This document shows positions 1-62,644 of a stretch of DNA of 64,000 bases, in pieces (position 1 is the stretch's first letter; every line of letters begins with the position of its first letter). A program made the position numbers and the translations under genes. Source of the DNA: an uncultured archaeon (GTDB lineage: Archaea; Halobacteriota; Methanosarcinia; Methanosarcinales; Methanoperedenaceae); contig CABMCA010000002.1 in assembly GCA_902384525.1 (NCBI GenBank), positions 312 through 64,311 of the forward strand. Direction: 5' to 3'. The notes beneath the pieces are model-generated. The model was not told where the DNA came from, made no database searches, and was given only the letters and a program-made list of their open reading frames with translations.

Positions 1-2223
1 CCGATTTAGAACTCCACCTTTCAGGAGCTCGATCATTACATACGCTCCTGGATCGCCGGTATAATCCCATCGAATCGTCCTTGATCCTCCTCTTACCCAG
101 TTCTCCGAGCCATTGGGAGAGGTGACCTTAATGCTTGAGATACGCCTCAAGCCAGGTAAAACTTTTCCATCAGACTTTGACATTGAAAAGCCAAGCAGGT
201 CTGCGAGAGTCTTTGCCATGTCAATGCTTCTTGCAGGCGTTGGATCAGTTTCGCCTTTTCTTATTGTTGGTCCGGAAAAAATTAATGGTATGTATGATTC
301 ATCCGGGTTGAGACCTCCATGTTCACCGAGTAACAGTTGGTCGGGTGTGGGAAATGCGGCCGGATCATCGAAATAATAGCCATCTGAAGTTTTAGCTAAT
401 AGAATTATATCTCCACTCCTTTCCGAATCTAAACTTTTGATTCGATTAACTGCATCAACATAATCAGCTTTTCCTGCGAAAAAGGTTTCCAGAGATTCCA
501 TACCCGCTCCCATTCCACCAGTATAAACCAAATATCTTGATGTAAGTCTGAATAAGACTACATCAACATATGGTTCAGACTTGAATGCAACTAAAGCTGG
601 TTCCAGATCTGAATACCCCACACTATTCCAATCATTTGTACTTATGTTTCCTATATAAATCTGTCCCATGCCACCGTTGGATGCCGCGACAGCATTATAT
701 CCCCCTTCAAGCAAGCCCTGATCGTCAATATCATATCCTACACTCAATAATTTCTGTTCGAGTATATCTTTTGTTATTCGAAATTCGGGAGCAAATTTAA
801 CAGGAGTCTGGCCATGATCTGACACAATAACTATTACTGTTTCAATCATTAAACCATTATTTTTCAAGCCGGGATATTCGATGGAACAAACACCTAAAAG
901 ATTTTGTAATGCACATCCTCCATTGATAAGACGACCAATTTGTTCATCAACATTATGTATTAAATAATATTCTTGATTATAAGGGTCTACTCCGTTTGGT
1001 CCAAGCCAGTGACTATATCCATCTAATCCTGGAAGATAAATTGTCGTAATTTTTCTGTCAGCATTATAATAAAGCTGGAACAAAGCATGTTCCATCGCAT
1101 TTGAATCTATTTTTGGGAAATCATGACTAATATAATTTGCCTCATATTCTGATGCTCCAGGCGTTATCCACTGCGTAGAACCTCTACTAAACTGATTAAA
1201 TATGACGGTGCTATCTATATTTCTGTCTCTTTTTGCGGCTTCATATATTGTATCTACATTAGTACTTAAATCACTATTTTGCTCCCCACCTCCAAGATAG
1301 GTCCACAATCCATATTTTCGCCATTCAACTGTACTCCTGTCAAACCATGAATTTCCAGCAATTTTATGATTTTTTGGATAATTGCCAGTGAAAATTGAAG
1401 CTTGTGCCGCTAAAGTTATAGAAGGAAAAACCGTTGTTGCGTCAGTAAACCTAACACCGTTATTAGCTATTTCCGACATGTTTGGCATAGCGTTAAGAGA
1501 ATTATAAAGAGCATCACGCTTCATACCATCGATGTCTATTATAATCGCTCTCTTGGGAATGGGGTTTGAAGTAACATTTAGAGATATAATTGTAGAAAAA
1601 GTCTGTGTTGATGCTGACGTTGTGGAATATGCTACATTAACTGGAATTGTCAGAGCTGTACCTTCAGGGAAATCTTTTGGAACAGGAACATCAATATACA
1701 TAAGATCTATTCCATCACTTATTTTTGTTTTTAAATCATCTTCTGATCTGATATATGATTTAATCTCCTCGTCTGAAAGTTTTTCAGTTTTAATTATATT
1801 ACTAAATTCCATATTTAGTTCTTCTCTTTGCTTAAGTGCATTACCAATTGGAGAAAGTTTCTTATTCACACTTTTTTTCTCTTGTTTTGGTTTAGAGTTA
1901 GATGAAATCGTTGAAACCTGCTGAGAAACAGTTGTTTTTTCAGTAAGCTGAAATGGATTATCGTAACTTATTTCATTAATTGTAACTTTCTTTTCATCCT
2001 GCTGAACTTGAGGAGTTGCTTGAGGCGTTGAAATCTCCTCTAATTGTGAATTTATTATCGATACTTGAATATGTAATACAGTCCCCGGTATGACTTGAGA
2101 TGGAGAATTGACTTTTATCTCTATTGGTTCAGTTGCGGCGTATGCAGGTATAGTTAAAATCAATACAAGTGCAAATGCAATTGAACATATTTTTATGTTA
2201 AAAAAATTTAATTTTTCTTTCAT
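1..2223 (-). CDS. Secreted alkaline-phosphatase-superfamily (nucleotide pyrophosphatase/phosphodiesterase-like) protein, 3' end runs off the window
   Basis: Not in the ORF track; translated by hand from ATG at 2223 (RBS-like GAGGA upstream). MKEKLNFFNIKICSIAFALVLILTIPAYA signal peptide, then IIIDIDG, TTVFPSITLAAQASIFTG (Thr nucleophile region), LPGLDGYSH, IVSDHG and GEHGG motifs. An Ig-like 'VTSPNGSENWVRG' module begins near the window edge. Confidence 0.8.
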   Translation of the reverse strand, partial: MKEKLNFFNIKICSIAFALVLILTIPAYAATEPIEIKVNSPSQVIPGTVLHIQVSIINSQLEEISTPQATPQVQQDEKKVTINEISYDNPFQLTEKTTVSQQVSTISSNSKPKQEKKSVNKKLSPIGNALKQREELNMEFSNIIKTEKLSDEEIKSYIRSEDDLKTKISDGIDLMYIDVPVPKDFPEGTALTIPVNVAYSTTSASTQTFSTIISLNVTSNPIPKRAIIIDIDGMKRDALYNSLNAMPNMSEIANNGVRFTDATTVFPSITLAAQASIFTGNYPKNHKIAGNSWFDRSTVEWRKYGLWTYLGGGEQNSDLSTNVDTIYEAAKRDRNIDSTVIFNQFSRGSTQWITPGASEYEANYISHDFPKIDSNAMEHALFQLYYNADRKITTIYLPGLDGYSHWLGPNGVDPYNQEYYLIHNVDEQIGRLINGGCALQNLLGVCSIEYPGLKNNGLMIETVIVIVSDHGQTPVKFAPEFRITKDILEQKLLSVGYDIDDQGLLEGGYNAVAASNGGMGQIYIGNISTNDWNSVGYSDLEPALVAFKSEPYVDVVLFRLTSRYLVYTGGMGAGMESLETFFAGKADYVDAVNRIKSLDSERSGDIILLAKTSDGYYFDDPAAFPTPDQLLLGEHGGLNPDESYIPLIFSGPTIRKGETDPTPARSIDMAKTLADLLGFSMSKSDGKVLPGLRRISSIKVTSPNGSENWVRGGSRTIRWDYTGDPGAYVMIELLKGGVLNR

Positions 2224-2249
2224 ATTTATTCCTCTTATTTAATTTTATT

Positions 2250-2591
2250 TTATGTTATTGTATATCCTAAAGATAACAAAGTTATAAACCAAATTAGATA
2301 CAAGATAATTGTTAATATTCCAACACCAGGTGCTTTAGTAAACTTTTTTGTAACTATAGTATATGCGATTGCCGAAGTTAAACCTGGTAATAATATCATA
2401 AGATAGAAACTGCGAGATACATAATCAGGCATCAGACTTACCATCTTTGTACCGAAAAAATTATATAATACAATCGTACCGATAATAATTATAATTTCAA
2501 TTCTATTTTCAGTTAATTTTTCAGTTAATTTATATTTTTCTAAAATTTGCATAAACCAAGCCTCCTTAATTGTCTGCAATACTATTGTCAC
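2250..2591 (-). CDS. Small membrane protein (about 3 TM), possible start at MQILEK
   Basis: ORF with three hydrophobic segments, directly upstream of and co-oriented with the phosphodiesterase gene. Confidence 0.6.
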   Translation of the reverse strand: MTIVLQTIKEAWFMQILEKYKLTEKLTENRIEIIIIIGTIVLYNFFGTKMVSLMPDYVSRSFYLMILLPGLTSAIAYTIVTKKFTKAPGVGILTIILYLIWFITLLSLGYTIT

Positions 2592-2909
2592 CAGGATCGC
2601 AACATAATACGATTATTGTCATATGAGAACAGCATGAACTCTCTCTTAATTGGCGCCACCATCCTCTGTCAGCGCGGCCCAGCATGTGAACGATACAAAG
2701 CCAGTCGTCATTAATCCACCCTTACAGAGAGCATCCACTCTCTACATATAATTATCAGATACCATTTTTTCCACCTGTCCCTGAATTCTAGGGCGAGCGC
2801 CTCAAACTCAGGTGAAAAGAATCCACGACCATAAACTATTTAACCTCCACCCTCATTCTAGCATTGTTCGTAATATTACGAATAATCCCAAAGAGGAAAA
2901 ATAATAAAA

Positions 2910-3431
2910 ATGACCCCAGAAAATTTCAAACCAAAGAAAGACTTCAATACCCGCCTTGAAAACACAAAGAGCCTGCCAGACATATTTGAAGTGGTGAAAG
3001 CCGCTGTCTGGGAATGCCAGAGAAAAAGCCGTGGAGGTCTGATGCTGGGACTTGCCAATCTCGGAAACCATCCTGAGGGATTTCTGGGTGCTTTCTATCC
3101 GGTCGGTTCAAATGTCATTGTGATGAATAAGATCCCTCTTGAGAGAATAAAAGAGACAAGGCTTGAGCTTTACAAACCTTATGCTTTCCATGTCCTTCTC
3201 CATGAATACCTGCACACTCTGGGCTATATGGACGAAAGCGGTGTAAGGCAGATGGCCCATCAGATCACAAAAGAAGTATTCGGGGAAGAGCATCTTGCGA
3301 CAAAGATTGCTGCAAATACGGCGCACTTCTTCCATAATCTTGTTTATCCGGGTGCAACATGGCAGGCAGACGAGATGAAAATGGAACTTGTGGGTGGTTT
3401 TGACAGGGGAAGCACGAGTTATATTTGTTAA
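2910..3431 (+). CDS. Zincin-like metallopeptidase (HExxH), conserved hypothetical
   Basis: HVLLHEYLHTLGY motif. Confidence 0.7.
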   Translation: MTPENFKPKKDFNTRLENTKSLPDIFEVVKAAVWECQRKSRGGLMLGLANLGNHPEGFLGAFYPVGSNVIVMNKIPLERIKETRLELYKPYAFHVLLHEYLHTLGYMDESGVRQMAHQITKEVFGEEHLATKIAANTAHFFHNLVYPGATWQADEMKMELVGGFDRGSTSYIC

Positions 3432-3435
3432 GTTT

Positions 3436-3573
3436 TCAAGATATTTTCGGGAATTCATGACCGCAATTAGGACATAATACCAGATTGCATTTCATGAACC
3501 TCGGACATGCCCTGCATCCCTGGTTATCCTTATCATCGAACCTGGCTCCGCAAAGAGGACACTGTGTTTTCAT
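3436..3573 (-). CDS. 45-aa Cys-rich FeoB-associated protein (FeoC-like / zinc ribbon)
   Basis: MKTQCPLCGARFDDKDNQGCRACPRFMKCNLVLCPNCGHEFPKIS; its ATG overlaps the feoB stop (ATGA at 3570-3573). Confidence 0.75.
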   Translation of the reverse strand: MKTQCPLCGARFDDKDNQGCRACPRFMKCNLVLCPNCGHEFPKIS

Positions 3574-5576
3574 AACAGGTGGTAATATCCTATGATCCTG
3601 GAAGCTATCCCGCCGATAAGTATTGCAAGCGTAATAGTGAAGGCCATGATGCCAAAAGCTCTTTTCCAGCCAAGCTCCCTTCCAAGTACGGCGATAGTTG
3701 CAACGCATGGGATATAGATCGTATTCACAAGCGCGTAAACGAATAATTGTGCGGGTGTCATGAATAGCAGGAGGTTCTTTGCGCCTCCTCCGTACATGAC
3801 CAATGCAAGAGTAACAAGCAGTTGGAGCGCAAGTTCCTTTCGCAGTACCGCGAAGATCAAAGTAAGACCGGCAACAGCAGGAAGACCCAGCCATCCTTCA
3901 ACTACAGGAGAGAGCGGTGAGGCCAGTTTCCATAGATATCCGGTTTCATAAAGCCCGCCAAGTACCATAGACCCTACAAGCACTATCGGAAAAGCCACGA
4001 ATACGAAGTCTTTGAACCTGTACCAGGTCTTTTTCAATATGTTTGATATCATTGGCATCCTGAATGGGAACATTTCCATGACAAGCCCTGTTGATTTTCC
4101 GGGCATTATTTTGTTAAGTCCTGCTCCCACAAGGAACACAAGAGCAAATACTATAAGATAAATTGCAACAGCTGGTTTCCATCCCACGAACAGGGAAACG
4201 GCGCCAAGGATAACGGCTGTTCTCGCGCTGCATGGGATAAGGGTGATAAGGGTACTTGCAATCGTTCGCTCCCGCATCGTGGTCAAAACGCGTGTACCGA
4301 TTATTGCGGGTACATTGCAGCCTGCGCCTGCAACAAGCGGGATGATCGCGCGCCCGTGAAGCCCGAACTTATGCATCAGCCTGTCTGTAAGGAATGCCAC
4401 AGAGTTCAGGTATCCTGAATCCTCAAGAAAAGCCAGCATGAAATAGAATGTAAGTACGTATGGTATACCCACAGCAAGAGCTGCAAGGATACCATCGTCA
4501 AAACCCCATATGAGAATTTTACCGATAATGCCGCTTCCAAAAACATAGTGAACAGCGTCATTAATGACAGGCGAAACATATGTTGCCCATTGATCACTGA
4601 AAAACGTGGAAAGCCAGTTCCCGCCATAAAAAAGAAAGGAAAAAATTATAGCAAGAACTCCGATAAGCAGTGGTATGCCGGTAAGCGGTGAAGTGGTATA
4701 AGCCCATATCTTATCCAATGGTATGGGTTTTACGTCCCCCTGTACCTGGGATGCTATCGAACCTGCAAGCCCATGTCGCTCACGTGCGATCCTTAATGGG
4801 GTTTTCTCTCTGTGTAATTCTTCTATCTCCCTGCTTATCTTGTTTGCTTCATCGATTATGGATTTGCCATTTTCATGTTTTCCGACAAGTTCAATAAACT
4901 CGGGATCATTTTCAAGAAGCATGATCGAAAGAGCCCTTGGATTTATCCCGAAATTATAAGGCATAAGAATTTTTTCAAGTTTTTTGATATTGGTTTCAAT
5001 ATCATCTCCATAATGCAATGAATAACTGATCCCGGTTTTATTTTTTGCAGTATCCACTGCCTGCTGTATCAGTTCATCAAGACCGCTGCCTGTCGTGGCT
5101 ATCGTCTTCACGACAGGGATACCAAGAAGCCGGGATAATTCCCCTGAATCGATCAGGATATTCCGTTTCTCGGCTTCATCTATCAGGTTCAAAGCAGCCA
5201 CGATCGGTATGCCAAGATCGATGAACTGGATAAGCATGTAGAGATTCCTTGCAAGGTTTGTGGCATCAAGGATCATTATTGCCACATCCGGTTTACAGTC
5301 AAAGATTGCCCTTCGCGCCACCCACTGGTCTTCCGAGACCGCGCCAAGGGCGTAGCTGCCGGGAAGGTCGATTATACCTATCCGCTGGTCTTTGAAATTC
5401 GTAGTTGCAAGATTGAGTTCCACGGTTTTTCCGGGATAGTTGGCAGTGACCACACCCATCCCGGTCAGGCGGTTAAATATGCTTGATTTTCCCACATTGG
5501 GATTTCCGGCAAGTGCAAATGTGAACTCAGTGCTGCCCTTTATTTCCTTGAGGGCGCTATGACATGAAAGAGCCAT
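3570..5576 (-). CDS. feoB: Ferrous iron transporter B
   Basis: G1 GNPNVGKS, G2 NYPGKTVE, G3 DLPG; C-terminal membrane/gate domains (GCNVPA, IPCSAR, YIPCVAT). Confidence 0.95.
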   Translation of the reverse strand: MALSCHSALKEIKGSTEFTFALAGNPNVGKSSIFNRLTGMGVVTANYPGKTVELNLATTNFKDQRIGIIDLPGSYALGAVSEDQWVARRAIFDCKPDVAIMILDATNLARNLYMLIQFIDLGIPIVAALNLIDEAEKRNILIDSGELSRLLGIPVVKTIATTGSGLDELIQQAVDTAKNKTGISYSLHYGDDIETNIKKLEKILMPYNFGINPRALSIMLLENDPEFIELVGKHENGKSIIDEANKISREIEELHREKTPLRIARERHGLAGSIASQVQGDVKPIPLDKIWAYTTSPLTGIPLLIGVLAIIFSFLFYGGNWLSTFFSDQWATYVSPVINDAVHYVFGSGIIGKILIWGFDDGILAALAVGIPYVLTFYFMLAFLEDSGYLNSVAFLTDRLMHKFGLHGRAIIPLVAGAGCNVPAIIGTRVLTTMRERTIASTLITLIPCSARTAVILGAVSLFVGWKPAVAIYLIVFALVFLVGAGLNKIMPGKSTGLVMEMFPFRMPMISNILKKTWYRFKDFVFVAFPIVLVGSMVLGGLYETGYLWKLASPLSPVVEGWLGLPAVAGLTLIFAVLRKELALQLLVTLALVMYGGGAKNLLLFMTPAQLFVYALVNTIYIPCVATIAVLGRELGWKRAFGIMAFTITLAILIGGIASRIIGYYHLL

Positions 5577-58993: not shown

Positions 58994-59623
58994 ATGCGAG
59001 CCGTCATTCCATTCAGGAAAAGTAATGCAAAGTCAAGGTTAAGCTCATTGCTATCTGAAAAAGAGCGCGAGGAGCTTGCGATGGCTATGCTGAATGACGT
59101 GGCTGGAACGCTTGTAAGATCAGGATGTTTTGACGTGATCGATATTTTATCCACATCAATGATCGAAGTCGAAGGTGTAAATATTGTTCTGACGGAGATG
59201 GGTTTGAATGAAGCCCTGAATGAATACCTTGGCAAGATGTCCTCACATAAAATAAATGAGCCAGTCCTTATAATTATGGCGGATATACCCCTTGTCTCAA
59301 CAAAGAACATAATAGATATTGTTTCATCCAATGCCGATATCGTGATCGCGCCAGGGAGAATGGGAGGCACGAATGCAATATTTATCCGCGACCCGGCAAG
59401 TTTCCATGTGGATTATTACGGCGCAAGTTTCCTTAAACACCTTAAGATCGCTTCAGGCCTTCATACAGAGGTCTTTGACTCTTTTAATATCAGTACTGAC
59501 ATAGATGAAGTTCCTGACCTTATAGAAGTCCTGCTTCATGGGAAAGGGTATTCGCAGAAATACTTAAAGAAGATCGGCATAGATGTATTAGCGAACGGTG
59601 GTCGTGTGGGAGTTAAAAGGTAG
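58994..59623 (+). CDS. cofC: 2-phospho-L-lactate guanylyltransferase (F420 biosynthesis)
   Basis: AKSRLS, GLNEAL, MADIP, GGTNA, YGASFLKH, DIDEVPDL. Confidence 0.92.
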   Translation: MRAVIPFRKSNAKSRLSSLLSEKEREELAMAMLNDVAGTLVRSGCFDVIDILSTSMIEVEGVNIVLTEMGLNEALNEYLGKMSSHKINEPVLIIMADIPLVSTKNIIDIVSSNADIVIAPGRMGGTNAIFIRDPASFHVDYYGASFLKHLKIASGLHTEVFDSFNISTDIDEVPDLIEVLLHGKGYSQKYLKKIGIDVLANGGRVGVKR

Positions 59624-59726
59624 AATCTTATTAATAAAATTAAACTGTATTATTTTCAGTTTAATGATAATAGCCTGGATGATCCACAGCGGTAATCTTT
59701 CTTTTCTGGCTATACTGAATCGGAAT

Positions 59727-59981
59727 TTATCTATCATAGATATTTTTCCTGTGACCAACTTTTAAAATTAATATTTTAAATTTGTTGTTTTCAATATCCA
59801 TTATAACTCTATAATCACCCACACGCAACTTATAACCGGGATCTTCCACAATTTTAGTCACATAAGCTTCAGGTCTTATTCTGATTCGTTCTAATACTGC
59901 AATTATTCTTTCCTGGATGTTTTTTTCCAGTTTCTTAAGCTGTCTGAAAGCTTTATCTGAAAAAATAATTTCATATGTCAT
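59727..59981 (-). CDS. RelE/ParE-family toxin
   Basis: FSDKAFRQLKKL, YKLRVGDYRVI, VGHRKNIY. Confidence 0.9.
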   Translation of the reverse strand: MTYEIIFSDKAFRQLKKLEKNIQERIIAVLERIRIRPEAYVTKIVEDPGYKLRVGDYRVIMDIENNKFKILILKVGHRKNIYDR

Positions 59982-60196
59982 ATTCCAAGCTCTTTCTTTA
60001 CCTCAGCTAAGGTATGAAAATTGCCAGCTTCTATCTCGGCACGGGCATGAGCGATTTCTTCTTTTGTTTCTTTACTGAGTTCCTGGAAATCCTCTACCAG
60101 ATCCCATATCACTTCCTCATAGGTCTCTTTTTCAAATAACTTCCTTTTTACAAGCTCTTTCTGTAGATCTTCACTTATCTGAATTGAAGTTGCCAT
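59978..60196 (-). CDS. Cognate antitoxin (archaeal RelB-like)
   Basis: MATSIQIS...ETYEEVI...TLAEVKKELG; ATGA overlap with the toxin. Confidence 0.85.
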   Translation of the reverse strand: MATSIQISEDLQKELVKRKLFEKETYEEVIWDLVEDFQELSKETKEEIAHARAEIEAGNFHTLAEVKKELGI

Positions 60197-60463
60197 TGAT
60201 AATCACTATAACCTATTATAATCTATTATAGTAATAAACATTTCTTAGCACCATTTCAAGCTTTTCGTGCGCTTTTATTCCACTAGTTGTTTGAACTGTT
60301 TGGGTTTGAGGTTGGTTCGGGAACTACATAGCTGATTTCTAGTTTTGGCGTTTCTTGTAGTGTTACTGGTTATATCTAATTTCTGTCTGCTTTTCTACAC
60401 ATCTGGAGAGGGAAATTACAAAAGTAAGAACCCCGATAAAAAAACATTTCTCAGCATAGCGGT

Positions 60464-60703
60464 TCACTCATTTTTTCTTTGACTTTGATATTCTTTACCA
60501 GGGCTTTCAGCCACCGCCATGCCTGAGTCCTGGGATGGTTTAACATAAACCTTTCGTGCAAGTGGCTTTTCATCCTCAATTAATTGCTGAAGGGCAAATT
60601 CGATAGCATGAGTTCTATTTGCAAATCGCCTTTTTTCAATCTGTGTATCCACCCATTTTAATAAATCCTCATCAAGAGCAATACTCGTTTTGATTTTAGC
60701 CAT
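60464..60703 (-). CDS. CopG/RHH DNA-binding protein
   Basis: KTSIALDEDLLKWVD...NRTHAIEFAL. Confidence 0.8.
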   Translation of the reverse strand: MAKIKTSIALDEDLLKWVDTQIEKRRFANRTHAIEFALQQLIEDEKPLARKVYVKPSQDSGMAVAESPGKEYQSQRKNE

Positions 60704-60803
60704 ACTATACTTTATCCATAATACCGCAAAGTATTTAGTGATTCATTACCCTATTATACCTAATTATACCTTATTGGGGTACAATTTGAGGGAAGTGATC
60801 GAC

Positions 60804-61031
60804 ATGGCAATACTTGAATCCAGAAATGAGAGGGTAAAATTACTCAAAAAAGGGTTTTCAGGTAAGCAAATAGAGATGCTGTATGTGATTCTCAATTCCC
60901 TTGATGTCGTGAGTGTAGACTGGCAGGATAATGAAATTCCTGGTCGGAGTTATCAAGAAATCTCTGGTTTTATTGAAAATAAAAAGTCTGTAAAAACAAG
61001 CTTGCAATCAAGCCGACCAAGATCGCAATAG
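60804..61031 (+). CDS. Small hypothetical protein
   Basis: MAILESRNERVKLLKKGFSGKQIEMLY; GGAAGTGA RBS-like; 3' end overlaps DUF3307 on the opposite strand. Confidence 0.45.
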   Translation: MAILESRNERVKLLKKGFSGKQIEMLYVILNSLDVVSVDWQDNEIPGRSYQEISGFIENKKSVKTSLQSSRPRSQ

Positions 61032-61710
61032 AGAAACTAAGTAGAGTTCCGATTAAAACGTATTCTCCCACTCTCCTTGTTTCGCTGAATCTGAAAATGG
61101 ATTTTGCTGCTACCAATAAACCTATCGCTTCATATTGTTCTAAAAGAACAAAAGTAAGAATTAAAAAGCGTTCCAACCAGCCAATCCATCTTCCAGCTTT
61201 TTCTAAGCTCTCATCTTTAGGGTCTTTATTTTCGGTATCCTCTCTCCACTTTTCTGTTATTTTGCTGATTAATTTACTACTTGGCCAAAGTATGATGAGA
61301 TAAGCTGCTATGATAACCCATATTTTTATTCCTGGCAGAAAGATTTGTTCTAAAAAGTCTATATCCTCTGATTTTGGATTAACAATCAATATCCAGATAA
61401 CCAGAAGAATCATGAAATGCCCAAGCTGATCTAATAAGAAGGAGTGGATATTATTTTCATACTTTGCTTTTATTCCATCGATCAAAATGTGTGTGATGGC
61501 GACAACAATAGGAATCCAGATTAAACTCCACAGTCCGGTGAAAAAATATGCAAGGGTTCCAGCAATTATCCCATGTAAATAGAGATGTTTTGAGTGCCAA
61601 CCATCCTTAAACCTCTGGTTTACCCATGAATCGCTTTGAAATACAAAATCAGTAAGCAGATGTGCAATTATTAAACGAATAAGTAATGATATTTCCATTT
61701 GCGTGACCAT
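60970..61710 (-). CDS. DUF3307-family membrane protein
   Basis: AHLLTDFVFQ, HG, HILIDG.K, DQLGH, AGRWIGWLER, EYVLIGTLLS. Confidence 0.85.
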   Translation of the reverse strand: MVTQMEISLLIRLIIAHLLTDFVFQSDSWVNQRFKDGWHSKHLYLHGIIAGTLAYFFTGLWSLIWIPIVVAITHILIDGIKAKYENNIHSFLLDQLGHFMILLVIWILIVNPKSEDIDFLEQIFLPGIKIWVIIAAYLIILWPSSKLISKITEKWREDTENKDPKDESLEKAGRWIGWLERFLILTFVLLEQYEAIGLLVAAKSIFRFSETRRVGEYVLIGTLLSFSIAILVGLIASLFLQTFYFQ

Positions 61711-61759
61711 TATAAGCCCGTACCCTTATTTTGCATGATTATAAGACTCCAACCTTATA
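61711..61759. promoter_or_regulatory. Pair of TATAAG-N8-CTTAT palindromes between satD and DUF3307
   Basis: TATAAGCCCGTACCCTTATT (61711-61730) and TATAAGACTCCAACCTTATA (61740-61759). Confidence 0.8.
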
Positions 61760-62440
61760 TCGGATAATTACTTTAAAACGCTCTAAAAATCCCTGAACCG
61801 CCCGAAAGCCACCGGTTTTTAAACGCTGAGATAATGCTGGCTGGCTTATCTTCAGGATTTTAGCGATTATTTCTTGGGTTATTTCCTGTATTATAACTGG
61901 ATCTTGTGCGAGGAATTCTCTTTTCGGCAATTGATATGCAATTGCTTCAGCTTGTTCCTTTGTCCATCGTTGAATCAGCGCATCAAGTAGGGCACATTCT
62001 GTTCGTAATTCTTCATTTATCTCGGCCCATGGCGTCCTTACGATTATATTTTGTTCCCCTTTTTTCATTCTGTCAAGTTCCGGACCCGAATTTCTAAAAG
62101 CTTCACCGTCACCCTCTCCCACCTGATCTCTGGGTAGATAATCAATCGTTCCTATGCCAATGGCAATCCTGGCATCCAGATGTGTTCGTTTCCCCTTAAA
62201 CTTGGATAGTAAACTGGCACGAATAATTAATGCAGCCTTGAGAGCTTCCTCAGGGCTGGCTAATACTCCCTGAAAGCTATCTCCCCTAAAAACCACAAAG
62301 GGCGATTCAATAATTTCAGGTGAGATTTCTTGGAATGAATCTTTGAGATTTGATAGAACTTCCTCTCGTTGTTGTATTCTAAATCTTGAAGAACCAATTA
62401 AATCGCCGGTCAGAACCGCATATATTTTTCCAGTTTCCAT
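61739..62440 (-). CDS. SatD-family protein (cyclase-like palm domain plus C-terminal HTH)
   Basis: VLTGDLIGS, FRGDSFQ, RIAIGIG, GEAFRNSG; TQEIIAKILKISQPALSQRL HTH. Confidence 0.85.
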   Translation of the reverse strand: METGKIYAVLTGDLIGSSRFRIQQREEVLSNLKDSFQEISPEIIESPFVVFRGDSFQGVLASPEEALKAALIIRASLLSKFKGKRTHLDARIAIGIGTIDYLPRDQVGEGDGEAFRNSGPELDRMKKGEQNIIVRTPWAEINEELRTECALLDALIQRWTKEQAEAIAYQLPKREFLAQDPVIIQEITQEIIAKILKISQPALSQRLKTGGFRAVQGFLERFKVIIRYKVGVL

Positions 62441-62461
62441 AAGGACACCATGTGATTATAA

Positions 62462-62510
62462 TATAAGGCTACAACCTTATAATACCATATTATAAGTCTA
62501 TGGCCTTATA
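62462..62510. promoter_or_regulatory. Pair of TATAAG-N8-CTTAT palindromes upstream of satD
   Basis: TATAAGGCTACAACCTTATA (62462-62481) and TATAAGTCTATGGCCTTATA (62491-62510). Confidence 0.8.
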
Positions 62511-62644
62511 TTAACCTTTTCATCCTTTGGGCTTTTGAAAAAAAATAGTCCTGCAACACGTTAAGGAAAGTGATCGAGATGAAAATATCTGCAATTTAAA
62601 AACGGCGCAAAGTATATCTTATATAATTAAGCAGTTAAGACGTT

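Follow-up and report, generated by a model that had tools for sequence, protein, structure and literature searches.

In a 64,000-nt stretch of DNA from an uncultured Methanoperedenaceae archaeon (contig CABMCA010000002.1, positions 312-64,311 of the forward strand; the whole stretch is called the window below), the minus strand carries two adjacent genes, satD (61739-62440, 233 aa) and a gene for a DUF3307 protein (60970-61710, 246 aa), together with two pairs of 20-bp palindromic boxes. On balance we slightly favor a model in which these form a cassette whose cyclase-fold repressor, SatD, regulates its own expression and silences a possibly harmful membrane protein, DUF3307. The boxes are most likely SatD operators, because the sequence of their arms tracks the recognition helix of SatD. 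The comparative evidence supports the boxes, their conservation throughout the family, their co-variation with the helix-turn-helix (HTH), the fold of SatD, the linkage of the two genes and the behavior of the whole as a cassette. Both proteins pass the Pfam thresholds: SatD scores 38.8 bits against PF16264 (cut-off 29 bits, residues 7-213) and DUF3307 scores 74.9 bits against PF11750 (cut-off 23 bits, residues 9-112). The closest SatD homologues, with 91% identity, belong to Candidatus Methanoperedens. For comparison, satD and DUF3307 were located in 80 satD loci from species-representative genomes, and in most of them satD is directly followed by DUF3307. The two-gene module proposed in a first-pass annotation of this DNA is upheld.

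Direct reading of the sequence and a pattern scan confirmed four boxes, all on the minus strand, with starts 29 bp apart within each pair. Box 1 (TATAAGGCCATAGACTTATA, 62491-62510) and box 2 (TATAAGGTTGTAGCCTTATA, 62462-62481) are the putative distal and proximal operators upstream of satD; from box 1 to box 2 is 29 bp, and box 2 is 41 nt ahead of the satD ATG. TTAATATA (62514-62507), which resembles an archaeal TATA box, runs into the left arm of box 1; with a purine-rich stretch resembling the B recognition element (BRE), it makes up a putative archaeal core promoter (62507-62525, minus strand). Box 3 (TATAAGGTTGGAGTCTTATA, 61740-61759) is within the final six satD codons and overlaps the stop codon. 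It is double-coding, TAT AAG GTT GGA GTC TTA TAA being read as YKVGVL and stop. Box 4 (AATAAGGGTACGGGCTTATA, 61711-61730) abuts the DUF3307 ATG at 61710. This ATG is the true start, because a second in-frame ATG is missing from the homologues L007 and L008. The earlier statements that box 3 encodes the last SatD codons and that box 4 touches the DUF3307 start are both borne out by the sequence. The core ATAAG-N8-CTTAT is perfect in all four boxes, and the outermost base of box 4 is A, not T. Five matches to this core were found in the window against 0.14 expected, and none of 100 shuffles reached five. The fifth match, at 59861-59880 inside a ParE gene, is probably due to chance, because it lacks the outer T/A and a partner box 29 bp away. 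A search of the 64-kb window for further box pairs, as other targets of SatD, found none.

A motif search near satD homologues, a check named in the first-pass annotation, found the same arrangement in many genomes. We scored as an array any chain of at least two palindromes of the form 6-N8-6 (20 bp) spaced 28-30 bp. Such chains flank satD in 65 of the 80 loci, and among 245 control windows with matching geometry only 7 contain one; chains with perfect arms occur in 26 of the loci and in none of the control windows. The arrays contain 2-7 palindromes with a 29-bp period. Near satD, 93 pairs are spaced at 29 bp, 28 at 58 bp and about 5 at other distances, and away from satD the spacing histogram is flat. 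An exact TATAAG-type pair, 29 bp apart, is present upstream of satD in Methanoperedens, ANME-2, Methanoregulaceae, anammox Planctomycetota, Marivirga, Roseivirgaceae and Balneolaceae. The box consensus is the full palindrome TATAAGGCTATAGCCTTATA, usually followed by AT. The arms vary by clade and the 20-bp/29-bp geometry is constant: TATAAG arms occur in Methanoperedens, ANME-2, Brocadia and Marivirga; TATAAC arms in Bacteroidales, where as many as six copies with perfect arms follow one another at 29 bp (L036); TTTAAG arms in Balneolaceae; and TATAGC, TATAGG and TATAGT are further types. A Segatella plasmid has ATCAAR-N8-YTTGAT at 3895/3924. The geometry is kept even without TATA-like arms, since a Haloplanus plasmid (L084, 1664-1788) carries the GC-rich box GTTCGC-N8-GCGAAC at 1664/1693 and 1740/1769, two pairs each 29 bp apart, the last box ending 2 nt before the SatD ATG. 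The position, period and symmetry of the boxes are thus conserved across two domains of life, in agreement with the selection on them suggested earlier. The palindromes upstream of the SatD homologue of plasmid pEC34A are imperfect and about 27-29 bp apart, and we did not count them as support. At L030 (2739-2932), two identical box pairs lie 144 bp apart upstream, as if the operator pair had been duplicated locally.

The boxes also keep their places relative to the two genes. Equivalents of box 1 lie at about -70 from the satD ATG in L001-L017, and relatives keep a box at about -41, as box 2 does. Methanoperedens and ANME-2 loci share (TTCGGAAG)-GTTAATATAAG upstream of box 1; the GTTAATATAAG part, which extends into the left arm of the box, looks like an archaeal BRE/TATA. 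GGTG is found 6-9 nt before the satD ATG in the same two groups. In Brocadia pituitae the first box occupies the spacer of a promoter-like site, TTGATT-18-TATACT, and at L079 the end of the box and the following AT make a -10 sequence, TATAAT. At the other end of satD, the position of box 3 (start 20 nt before the end of the stop codon, in frame) recurs in L004, L012, L014-L016, L019, L024, L027, L028 and L044. The SatD C-terminus follows the arm, being Y-K-x-x-x-L with TATAAG, Y-R-x-x-x-L with TATAGG and Y-N-x-x-x-L with TATAAC. The second downstream box of relatives has GGAG or GAGG, a ribosome-binding site, at its center and abuts the DUF3307 ATG; this double constraint fixes the DUF3307 ATG at 29 nt from the satD stop in the window and in 12 related loci. 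Such placements would suit a repressor, the promoter assignments being consensus matches only.

The recognition helix corresponds to residues 199-206 of the window SatD, SQPALSQR. In loci with arrays, base 6 of the arm tracks this helix: xQRL goes with TATAAG, xKR[ILV] with TATAAC or TATAGC, NER with TATAGG and HYRV with TTTAAG, and L038 and L044, which carry K, have mixed arms. It is from this co-variation that we infer binding of SatD to the boxes, and we regard it as supporting evidence rather than proof, the clades not being independent samples. Because the arms co-vary with the recognition helix, the self-regulation proposed in the first-pass annotation is strongly implied. A specificity code is predicted in which residue 205 of SatD is matched to arm base 6.

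The palindromes might instead be recombination or integration sites flanking satD, as had been offered as an alternative, or RNA hairpins acting in the transcript. The cassette has clearly moved. In a blastn comparison of the window with the closely related locus L005, the flanking genes cofC, RHH/orf113 (RHH, ribbon-helix-helix) and pdxS are 93-96% identical and colinear, and the segment 60968-62534 (minus strand), comprising promoter and operators, satD and DUF3307, has 87% identity, runs in the opposite direction and lies across the RHH/orf113 pair. The whole segment moves as a single unit, and satD-DUF3307 is thus a discrete movable cassette. However, the mobile unit does not end at the boxes: one boundary is about 24 bp outward of box 1 and the other coincides with the DUF3307 stop codon. 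We therefore rejected the paired recombination sites. No target-site duplication was seen at the cassette ends 62534 and 60968 relative to L005, and no recombinase was found between cofC and pdxS. As to hairpins, box 4 holds the ribosome-binding site, and boxes 3 and 4 would lie in transcribed sequence if the genes are co-transcribed. Against this, the 73 arm mismatches in the arrays include 7 of the G:T type and 9 of the A:C type, with no G:U bias, and are located at the outer and inner edges of the arms; this pattern fits protein-DNA contact and argues against a selected RNA hairpin. Boxes also occur in promoter spacers, upstream of the likely transcription start. The sequence of the arms itself, not just their pairing, is conserved and co-varies with the HTH. 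We consider sites or hairpins of either kind very improbable, and SatD operators remain our reading of the boxes.

Structure models were made with AlphaFold2 (AF2) on database homologues. The SatD model has a predicted local distance difference test (pLDDT) score of 88.4 and a predicted template modeling (pTM) score of 0.88. The predicted layout is a palm domain from residue 1 to about 160, a low-confidence linker at about 172-188, which the model shows as disordered at 175-184, and an HTH at about 186-233. In a Foldseek search against the PDB, the first 150-165 residues matched class III cyclases, GGDEF domains and Pycsar uridylate cyclases. All of the top 50 matches were of these classes, with a probability of 1.00 (one with 0.99) and E-values from 1.6e-4; they include CyaC, Rv1264, Ma1120, sGC, GGDEF and the cyclic UMP (cUMP) synthases 7r65 and 8jsz, and the class III cyclases gave E-values of 1e-4 to 1e-3. 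A SatD sequence profile run against PDB sequences found the cyclase 3mr7 (E = 6e-4) and Ma1120. The profile alignments, which end at about SatD residue 104, pair D13, G53-D54 and R91-I-x-I-G with metal-binding and strand motifs, D13 and D54 corresponding to the Asp residues of 3mr7. No match of SatD to Pfam Guanylate_cyc or GGDEF was found at E <= 0.1. These results agree with the palm/cyclase fold put forward in the first-pass annotation, and the N-terminal domain of SatD is, by its confident model, a palm of the class III cyclase/GGDEF type.

The SatD motifs G12-D13, R52-G53-D54-S55-F56-Q57-G58 and R91-I-A-I-G95-x-G97, quoted in part before, are present and conserved. Residue conservation was scored over 142 representatives of 50% clusters. 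D13 is kept in 99%, R52 in 98%, G53 in 99%, D54 and Q57 in 100% and R91 in 96%; G95, G97, G112, S118 and G119 are each kept in 99-100%. The best-conserved positions are in the palm domain, not in the HTH. Because both metal-binding Asp residues and the invariant Arg, Gln and Gly residues are kept, the palm domain most likely binds a nucleotide, and it may turn it over; the predicted ligand site consists of D13, D54, R52, Q57 and R91. Because the canonical class III Asn/Arg pair appears not to be conserved, we call the domain cyclase-fold and probably nucleotide-binding rather than a cyclase. The C-terminal part of SatD aligns with sigma-factor region 4, GerE, MarR-type and other HTH proteins, and SatD homologues have precomputed Sigma70_r4 matches, which bears out the C-terminal HTH recognized earlier. 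The exhaustive family search gave 3987 clusters at E <= 1e-3, nearly all of 210-240 aa. A few relatives (P0317, P0318 and P0321, 420-577 aa) carry C-terminal TPR repeats after the HTH, and no fusions of SatD to DUF3307 were found among the SatD relatives, the longer ones being those with TPR repeats. The linker between palm and HTH (61877-61927 in the window) differs in length from one close Methanoperedens relative to another, and the insertion is missing from more distant homologues.

The DUF3307 protein is an all-helical membrane protein of about 10 helices, and all 35 aligned homologues match PF11750. Its N-terminal half, the Pfam DUF3307 region, contains the invariant residues H17, D21, Q25, H46, H74, D78, D94, Q95 and H98, arranged in the kept motifs H17xxxD21, H74xxxD78-G79-x-K81 and D94-Q95-xx-H98. 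The membrane character and the His/Asp motifs noted before are supported. In the unannotated C-terminal half, E180, R181, K203, S204, R207, E216 and Y217 are invariant. The invariant His, Asp and Gln residues suggest an intramembrane metal site. No second Pfam family was found in the 35 homologues, and no NCBIfam model matches DUF3307. Some loci contain incomplete copies. In Methanoregulaceae, partial DUF3307 genes after satD (L052, 3729-4034; L062, 3109-3438) keep the C-terminal half; at L027 (1987-2163) a C-terminal DUF3307 fragment is all that is left after satD; and in M. nitroreducens Mnv1 (L011, 3695-3846) DUF3307 has an internal deletion of residues of about 22-208 with satD and the boxes intact.

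The first-pass annotation compared the pair to the defense systems Pycsar (pyrimidine cyclase system for antiphage resistance) and CBASS (cyclic-oligonucleotide-based antiphage signaling system). SatD would then be an active cyclase whose product directly activates the DUF3307 effector, with the HTH and boxes only setting expression. The cyclase-like fold, which includes similarity to the Pycsar cUMP synthases, the invariance of both metal-binding Asp residues, the multi-pass membrane partner and the small size of the cassette on plasmids all speak for it. However, no PADLOC defense model matched either protein (0 families at E <= 1), and no cyclic nucleotide monophosphate (cNMP)-binding, SAVED, CARF or other sensor domain was detected in the 35 DUF3307 homologues. 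The Asn/Arg pair that appears not to be conserved in SatD is the transition-state pair. The sampled genomic contexts are not defense islands. A tblastn search of a phage collection with both proteins gave no matches, and IMG/VR contained one locus. The cyclases of Pycsar and CBASS are not known to carry a fused DNA-binding domain. Direct signaling of this kind is in our opinion improbable, and the Pycsar/CBASS architecture is not supported. Because the cyclase-like domain is fused to a DNA-binding domain that targets its own operon, the coupling within the cassette is evidently transcriptional, and no second-messenger link from cyclase to effector is indicated.

The pair is also carried by plasmids. 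It occurs in 14 plasmid records; on plasmids of Proteobacteria, Bacteroidota and haloarchaea the two genes are always adjacent and in the same order, and Salinivibrio plasmids carry them as well. Plasmid pEC34A (L081, NC_019077.1), a 3.77-kb mobilizable plasmid of the ColE1 type, encodes only rop, mobA, the SatD homologue and DUF3307 (pair at 1792-3481). The DUF3307 protein of this type has 332 aa, and five Klebsiella plasmids of identical size have the same sole cargo. In Streptococcus pyogenes, satD was the single accessory gene found essential in every strain tested (meta-analysis, PMC11323703). An accessory yet essential satD is the pattern expected for the repressor or antidote of a harmful partner. 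Together with the degraded DUF3307 beside an intact satD in L011, it speaks only indirectly for a toxic second gene on whose account the first would be needed.

Several observations weigh against a repressor guarding a harmful protein. The class III Asn/Arg positions of SatD, located by motif, are variable (R116 in 56% and N117 in 23%). The AF2 model of DUF3307 is only moderate (pLDDT 74.5) and without a fold match, a fold search of it against the PDB giving none below E = 1. In Methanoculleus-type loci the gene order is reversed, DUF3307 preceding satD, and the boxes are all imperfect. A short gene can score as essential in transposon sequencing by artifact, and the argument from S. pyogenes presupposes a DUF3307 gene beside satD there. 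The neighbors in ten sampled genomes are ordinary housekeeping genes, not defense islands. In 13 Bacteroidota loci an ABC-F ATPase gene is always upstream of satD in stable synteny (L026, L028, L032, L035, L037, L043, L044, L046, L047, L051, L055, L057 and L071). The housekeeping neighbors and the ABC-F synteny are as compatible with a physiological role as with a selfish one. A Salinivibrio plasmid (L085, 1-1325) has a different ABC-F gene, 26-30% identical in its product, likewise upstream of satD, and a functional link of the cassette to translation factors through ABC-F is possible.

These last points would fit SatD as an ordinary local regulator that senses a metabolite or nucleotide pool and tunes DUF3307 as a metal-binding intramembrane hydrolase or an ion transporter in envelope or ion homeostasis, neither toxic nor selfish. 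The invariant His, Asp and Gln residues in the DUF3307 helices, typical of an intramembrane metal site, and the very large and uniform SatD family would also be in keeping with such a role, and the ABC-F synteny extends to Salinivibrio. It accounts less well for a mobilizable plasmid of 3.77 kb with the pair as its only cargo, for relocation of the cassette between near-identical genomes and among toxin-antitoxin cassettes, for the accessory but essential satD of S. pyogenes, and for the internal deletion or truncation of DUF3307 with satD intact in L011, L027, L052 and L062. We regard an ordinary regulator as rather doubtful and return to SatD as the repressor of a possibly harmful protein.

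In this preferred model SatD would be a DNA-binding regulator, and the first gene would control the cassette to which it belongs. Proteins of the class III cyclase/GGDEF fold normally act as dimers with two-fold symmetry. A SatD dimer could present two HTHs of the sigma-70 region-4 type to one 20-bp palindrome, and several dimers may occupy boxes at the 29-bp spacing, polymerizing on the array. One pair of boxes would cover the satD promoter; the other would cover the satD stop codon, the 28 intergenic nt, the ribosome-binding site and the DUF3307 start. From this arrangement it follows that bound SatD would limit its own synthesis and keep DUF3307 silent. A nucleotide at the palm domain would be the switch that releases the DNA, and DUF3307, once derepressed, might be harmful or growth-arresting. 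The cassette would then act like a toxin-antitoxin or abortive-type module whose "antitoxin" works by transcription. We hold repression, not activation, to be probable; for a nucleotide as the signal the balance is about even; and toxicity of DUF3307 is a tentative proposal. A toxin-antitoxin-like logic for the cassette is plausible. A bolder version, which seems to us rather unlikely, is a widespread conditional-toxicity or abortive module in which a SatD filament on the 29-bp array, with TATA-like half-sites, frees a membrane-damaging protein upon a change in a nucleotide signal. If this were true, the TATA-like half-sites of many lineages would coincide with the bacterial -10 sequence and the archaeal TATA box, and such overlap may explain how the cassette functions after transfer between domains, for example with TATAAG boxes in both Methanoperedens and anammox bacteria.

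Small cassettes seem to accumulate in the gap between cofC and pdxS. At 59623-60463 the window has an insertion with a ParE/RelE toxin gene (59727-59981) and the gene for its antitoxin (59978-60196), which the otherwise syntenic loci L005 and L003 lack. An open reading frame of 113 aa without a Pfam match (60690-61031, plus strand) is divergent to the RHH gene (60464-60703, minus strand) and overlaps it. Both are 95% conserved in L005, where only the first 82 aa of the reading frame match; in the window, its end runs into the SatD cassette. Public sequencing runs cover the locus poorly, the share of its words being no higher than 0.38 in any DNA run and 0.09 in any RNA run.

The satD-DUF3307 pair is common in bacteria, archaea and plasmids (about 4000 protein clusters at 50% identity) and has had no assigned function. 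It now has a defined candidate operator, a 20-bp palindrome with a 29-bp period. The model makes a genetic prediction, that satD should be dispensable only in the absence of DUF3307, and pEC34A, a small E. coli plasmid, offers an easy experimental entry and a convenient laboratory model. If the palm domain gates DNA binding as a sensor or enzyme, it would be a compact new link of nucleotide chemistry to transcription. In that case there would also be an explanation for the essential score of satD in a pathogen that has it only as an accessory gene.

The SatD family is named after satD of the sat operon of Streptococcus mutans. Both window proteins are members of Pfam families, PF16264 and PF11750, and NCBI calls close homologues "SatD family protein" and "DUF3307 domain-containing protein"; these are names without a mechanism. 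In the searchable literature we found neither the operator arrays nor the cyclase-like fold described, and no function given for the pair. The families already have database names; an account of their wiring, fold and likely logic appears to be missing from that literature. Type II toxin-antitoxin systems and other toxic genes guarded by a repressor share with the cassette the small gene pair, the palindromic operators at its own promoter (binding being inferred from co-variation), the carriage on small plasmids, the location in a patch with ParE and RHH cassettes and the mobility as a unit. The likeness extends to a regulator that is essential yet accessory (S. pyogenes, PMC11323703). Unlike those systems, the first gene of the cassette encodes 233 aa with an enzyme-like sensor domain, and nothing shows neutralization by protein-protein contact.

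Compared with CBASS, SatD has a palm of the cyclase-homology fold, not the CD-NTase (Pol-beta-like) fold, and PADLOC gave no match. Pycsar resembles satD-DUF3307 in combining a cyclase-fold protein with a membrane protein in a two-gene unit, and SatD is similar in fold to the cUMP synthases; the differences are the lack of a PADLOC match, a DUF3307 protein without a cNMP-binding domain and the putative role of SatD as a DNA-binding regulator of its operon. With the class III cyclases (CyaC, Rv1264, Ma1120 and sGC) and GGDEF proteins SatD has the same fold in common over about 150-165 residues, and with the former also the aligned pair of metal-binding Asp residues and the R-I-x-I-G strand. SatD differs from them in apparently having no conserved alpha-4 Asn/Arg pair, in the invariance of R52, Q57 and S118-G119 instead, and in the direct fusion of its palm to an HTH. 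Mycobacterial proteins of the Rv0386 type, of about 1000 aa, consist of a class III cyclase, a STAND ATPase and an HTH of the sigma-r4/LuxR-like type. Like SatD, they unite a cyclase domain and an HTH in one polypeptide, and a few SatD relatives likewise have TPR repeats. Compared with them, SatD is a minimal version of 220 aa that has a membrane protein as its dedicated partner and a defined array of putative operators.

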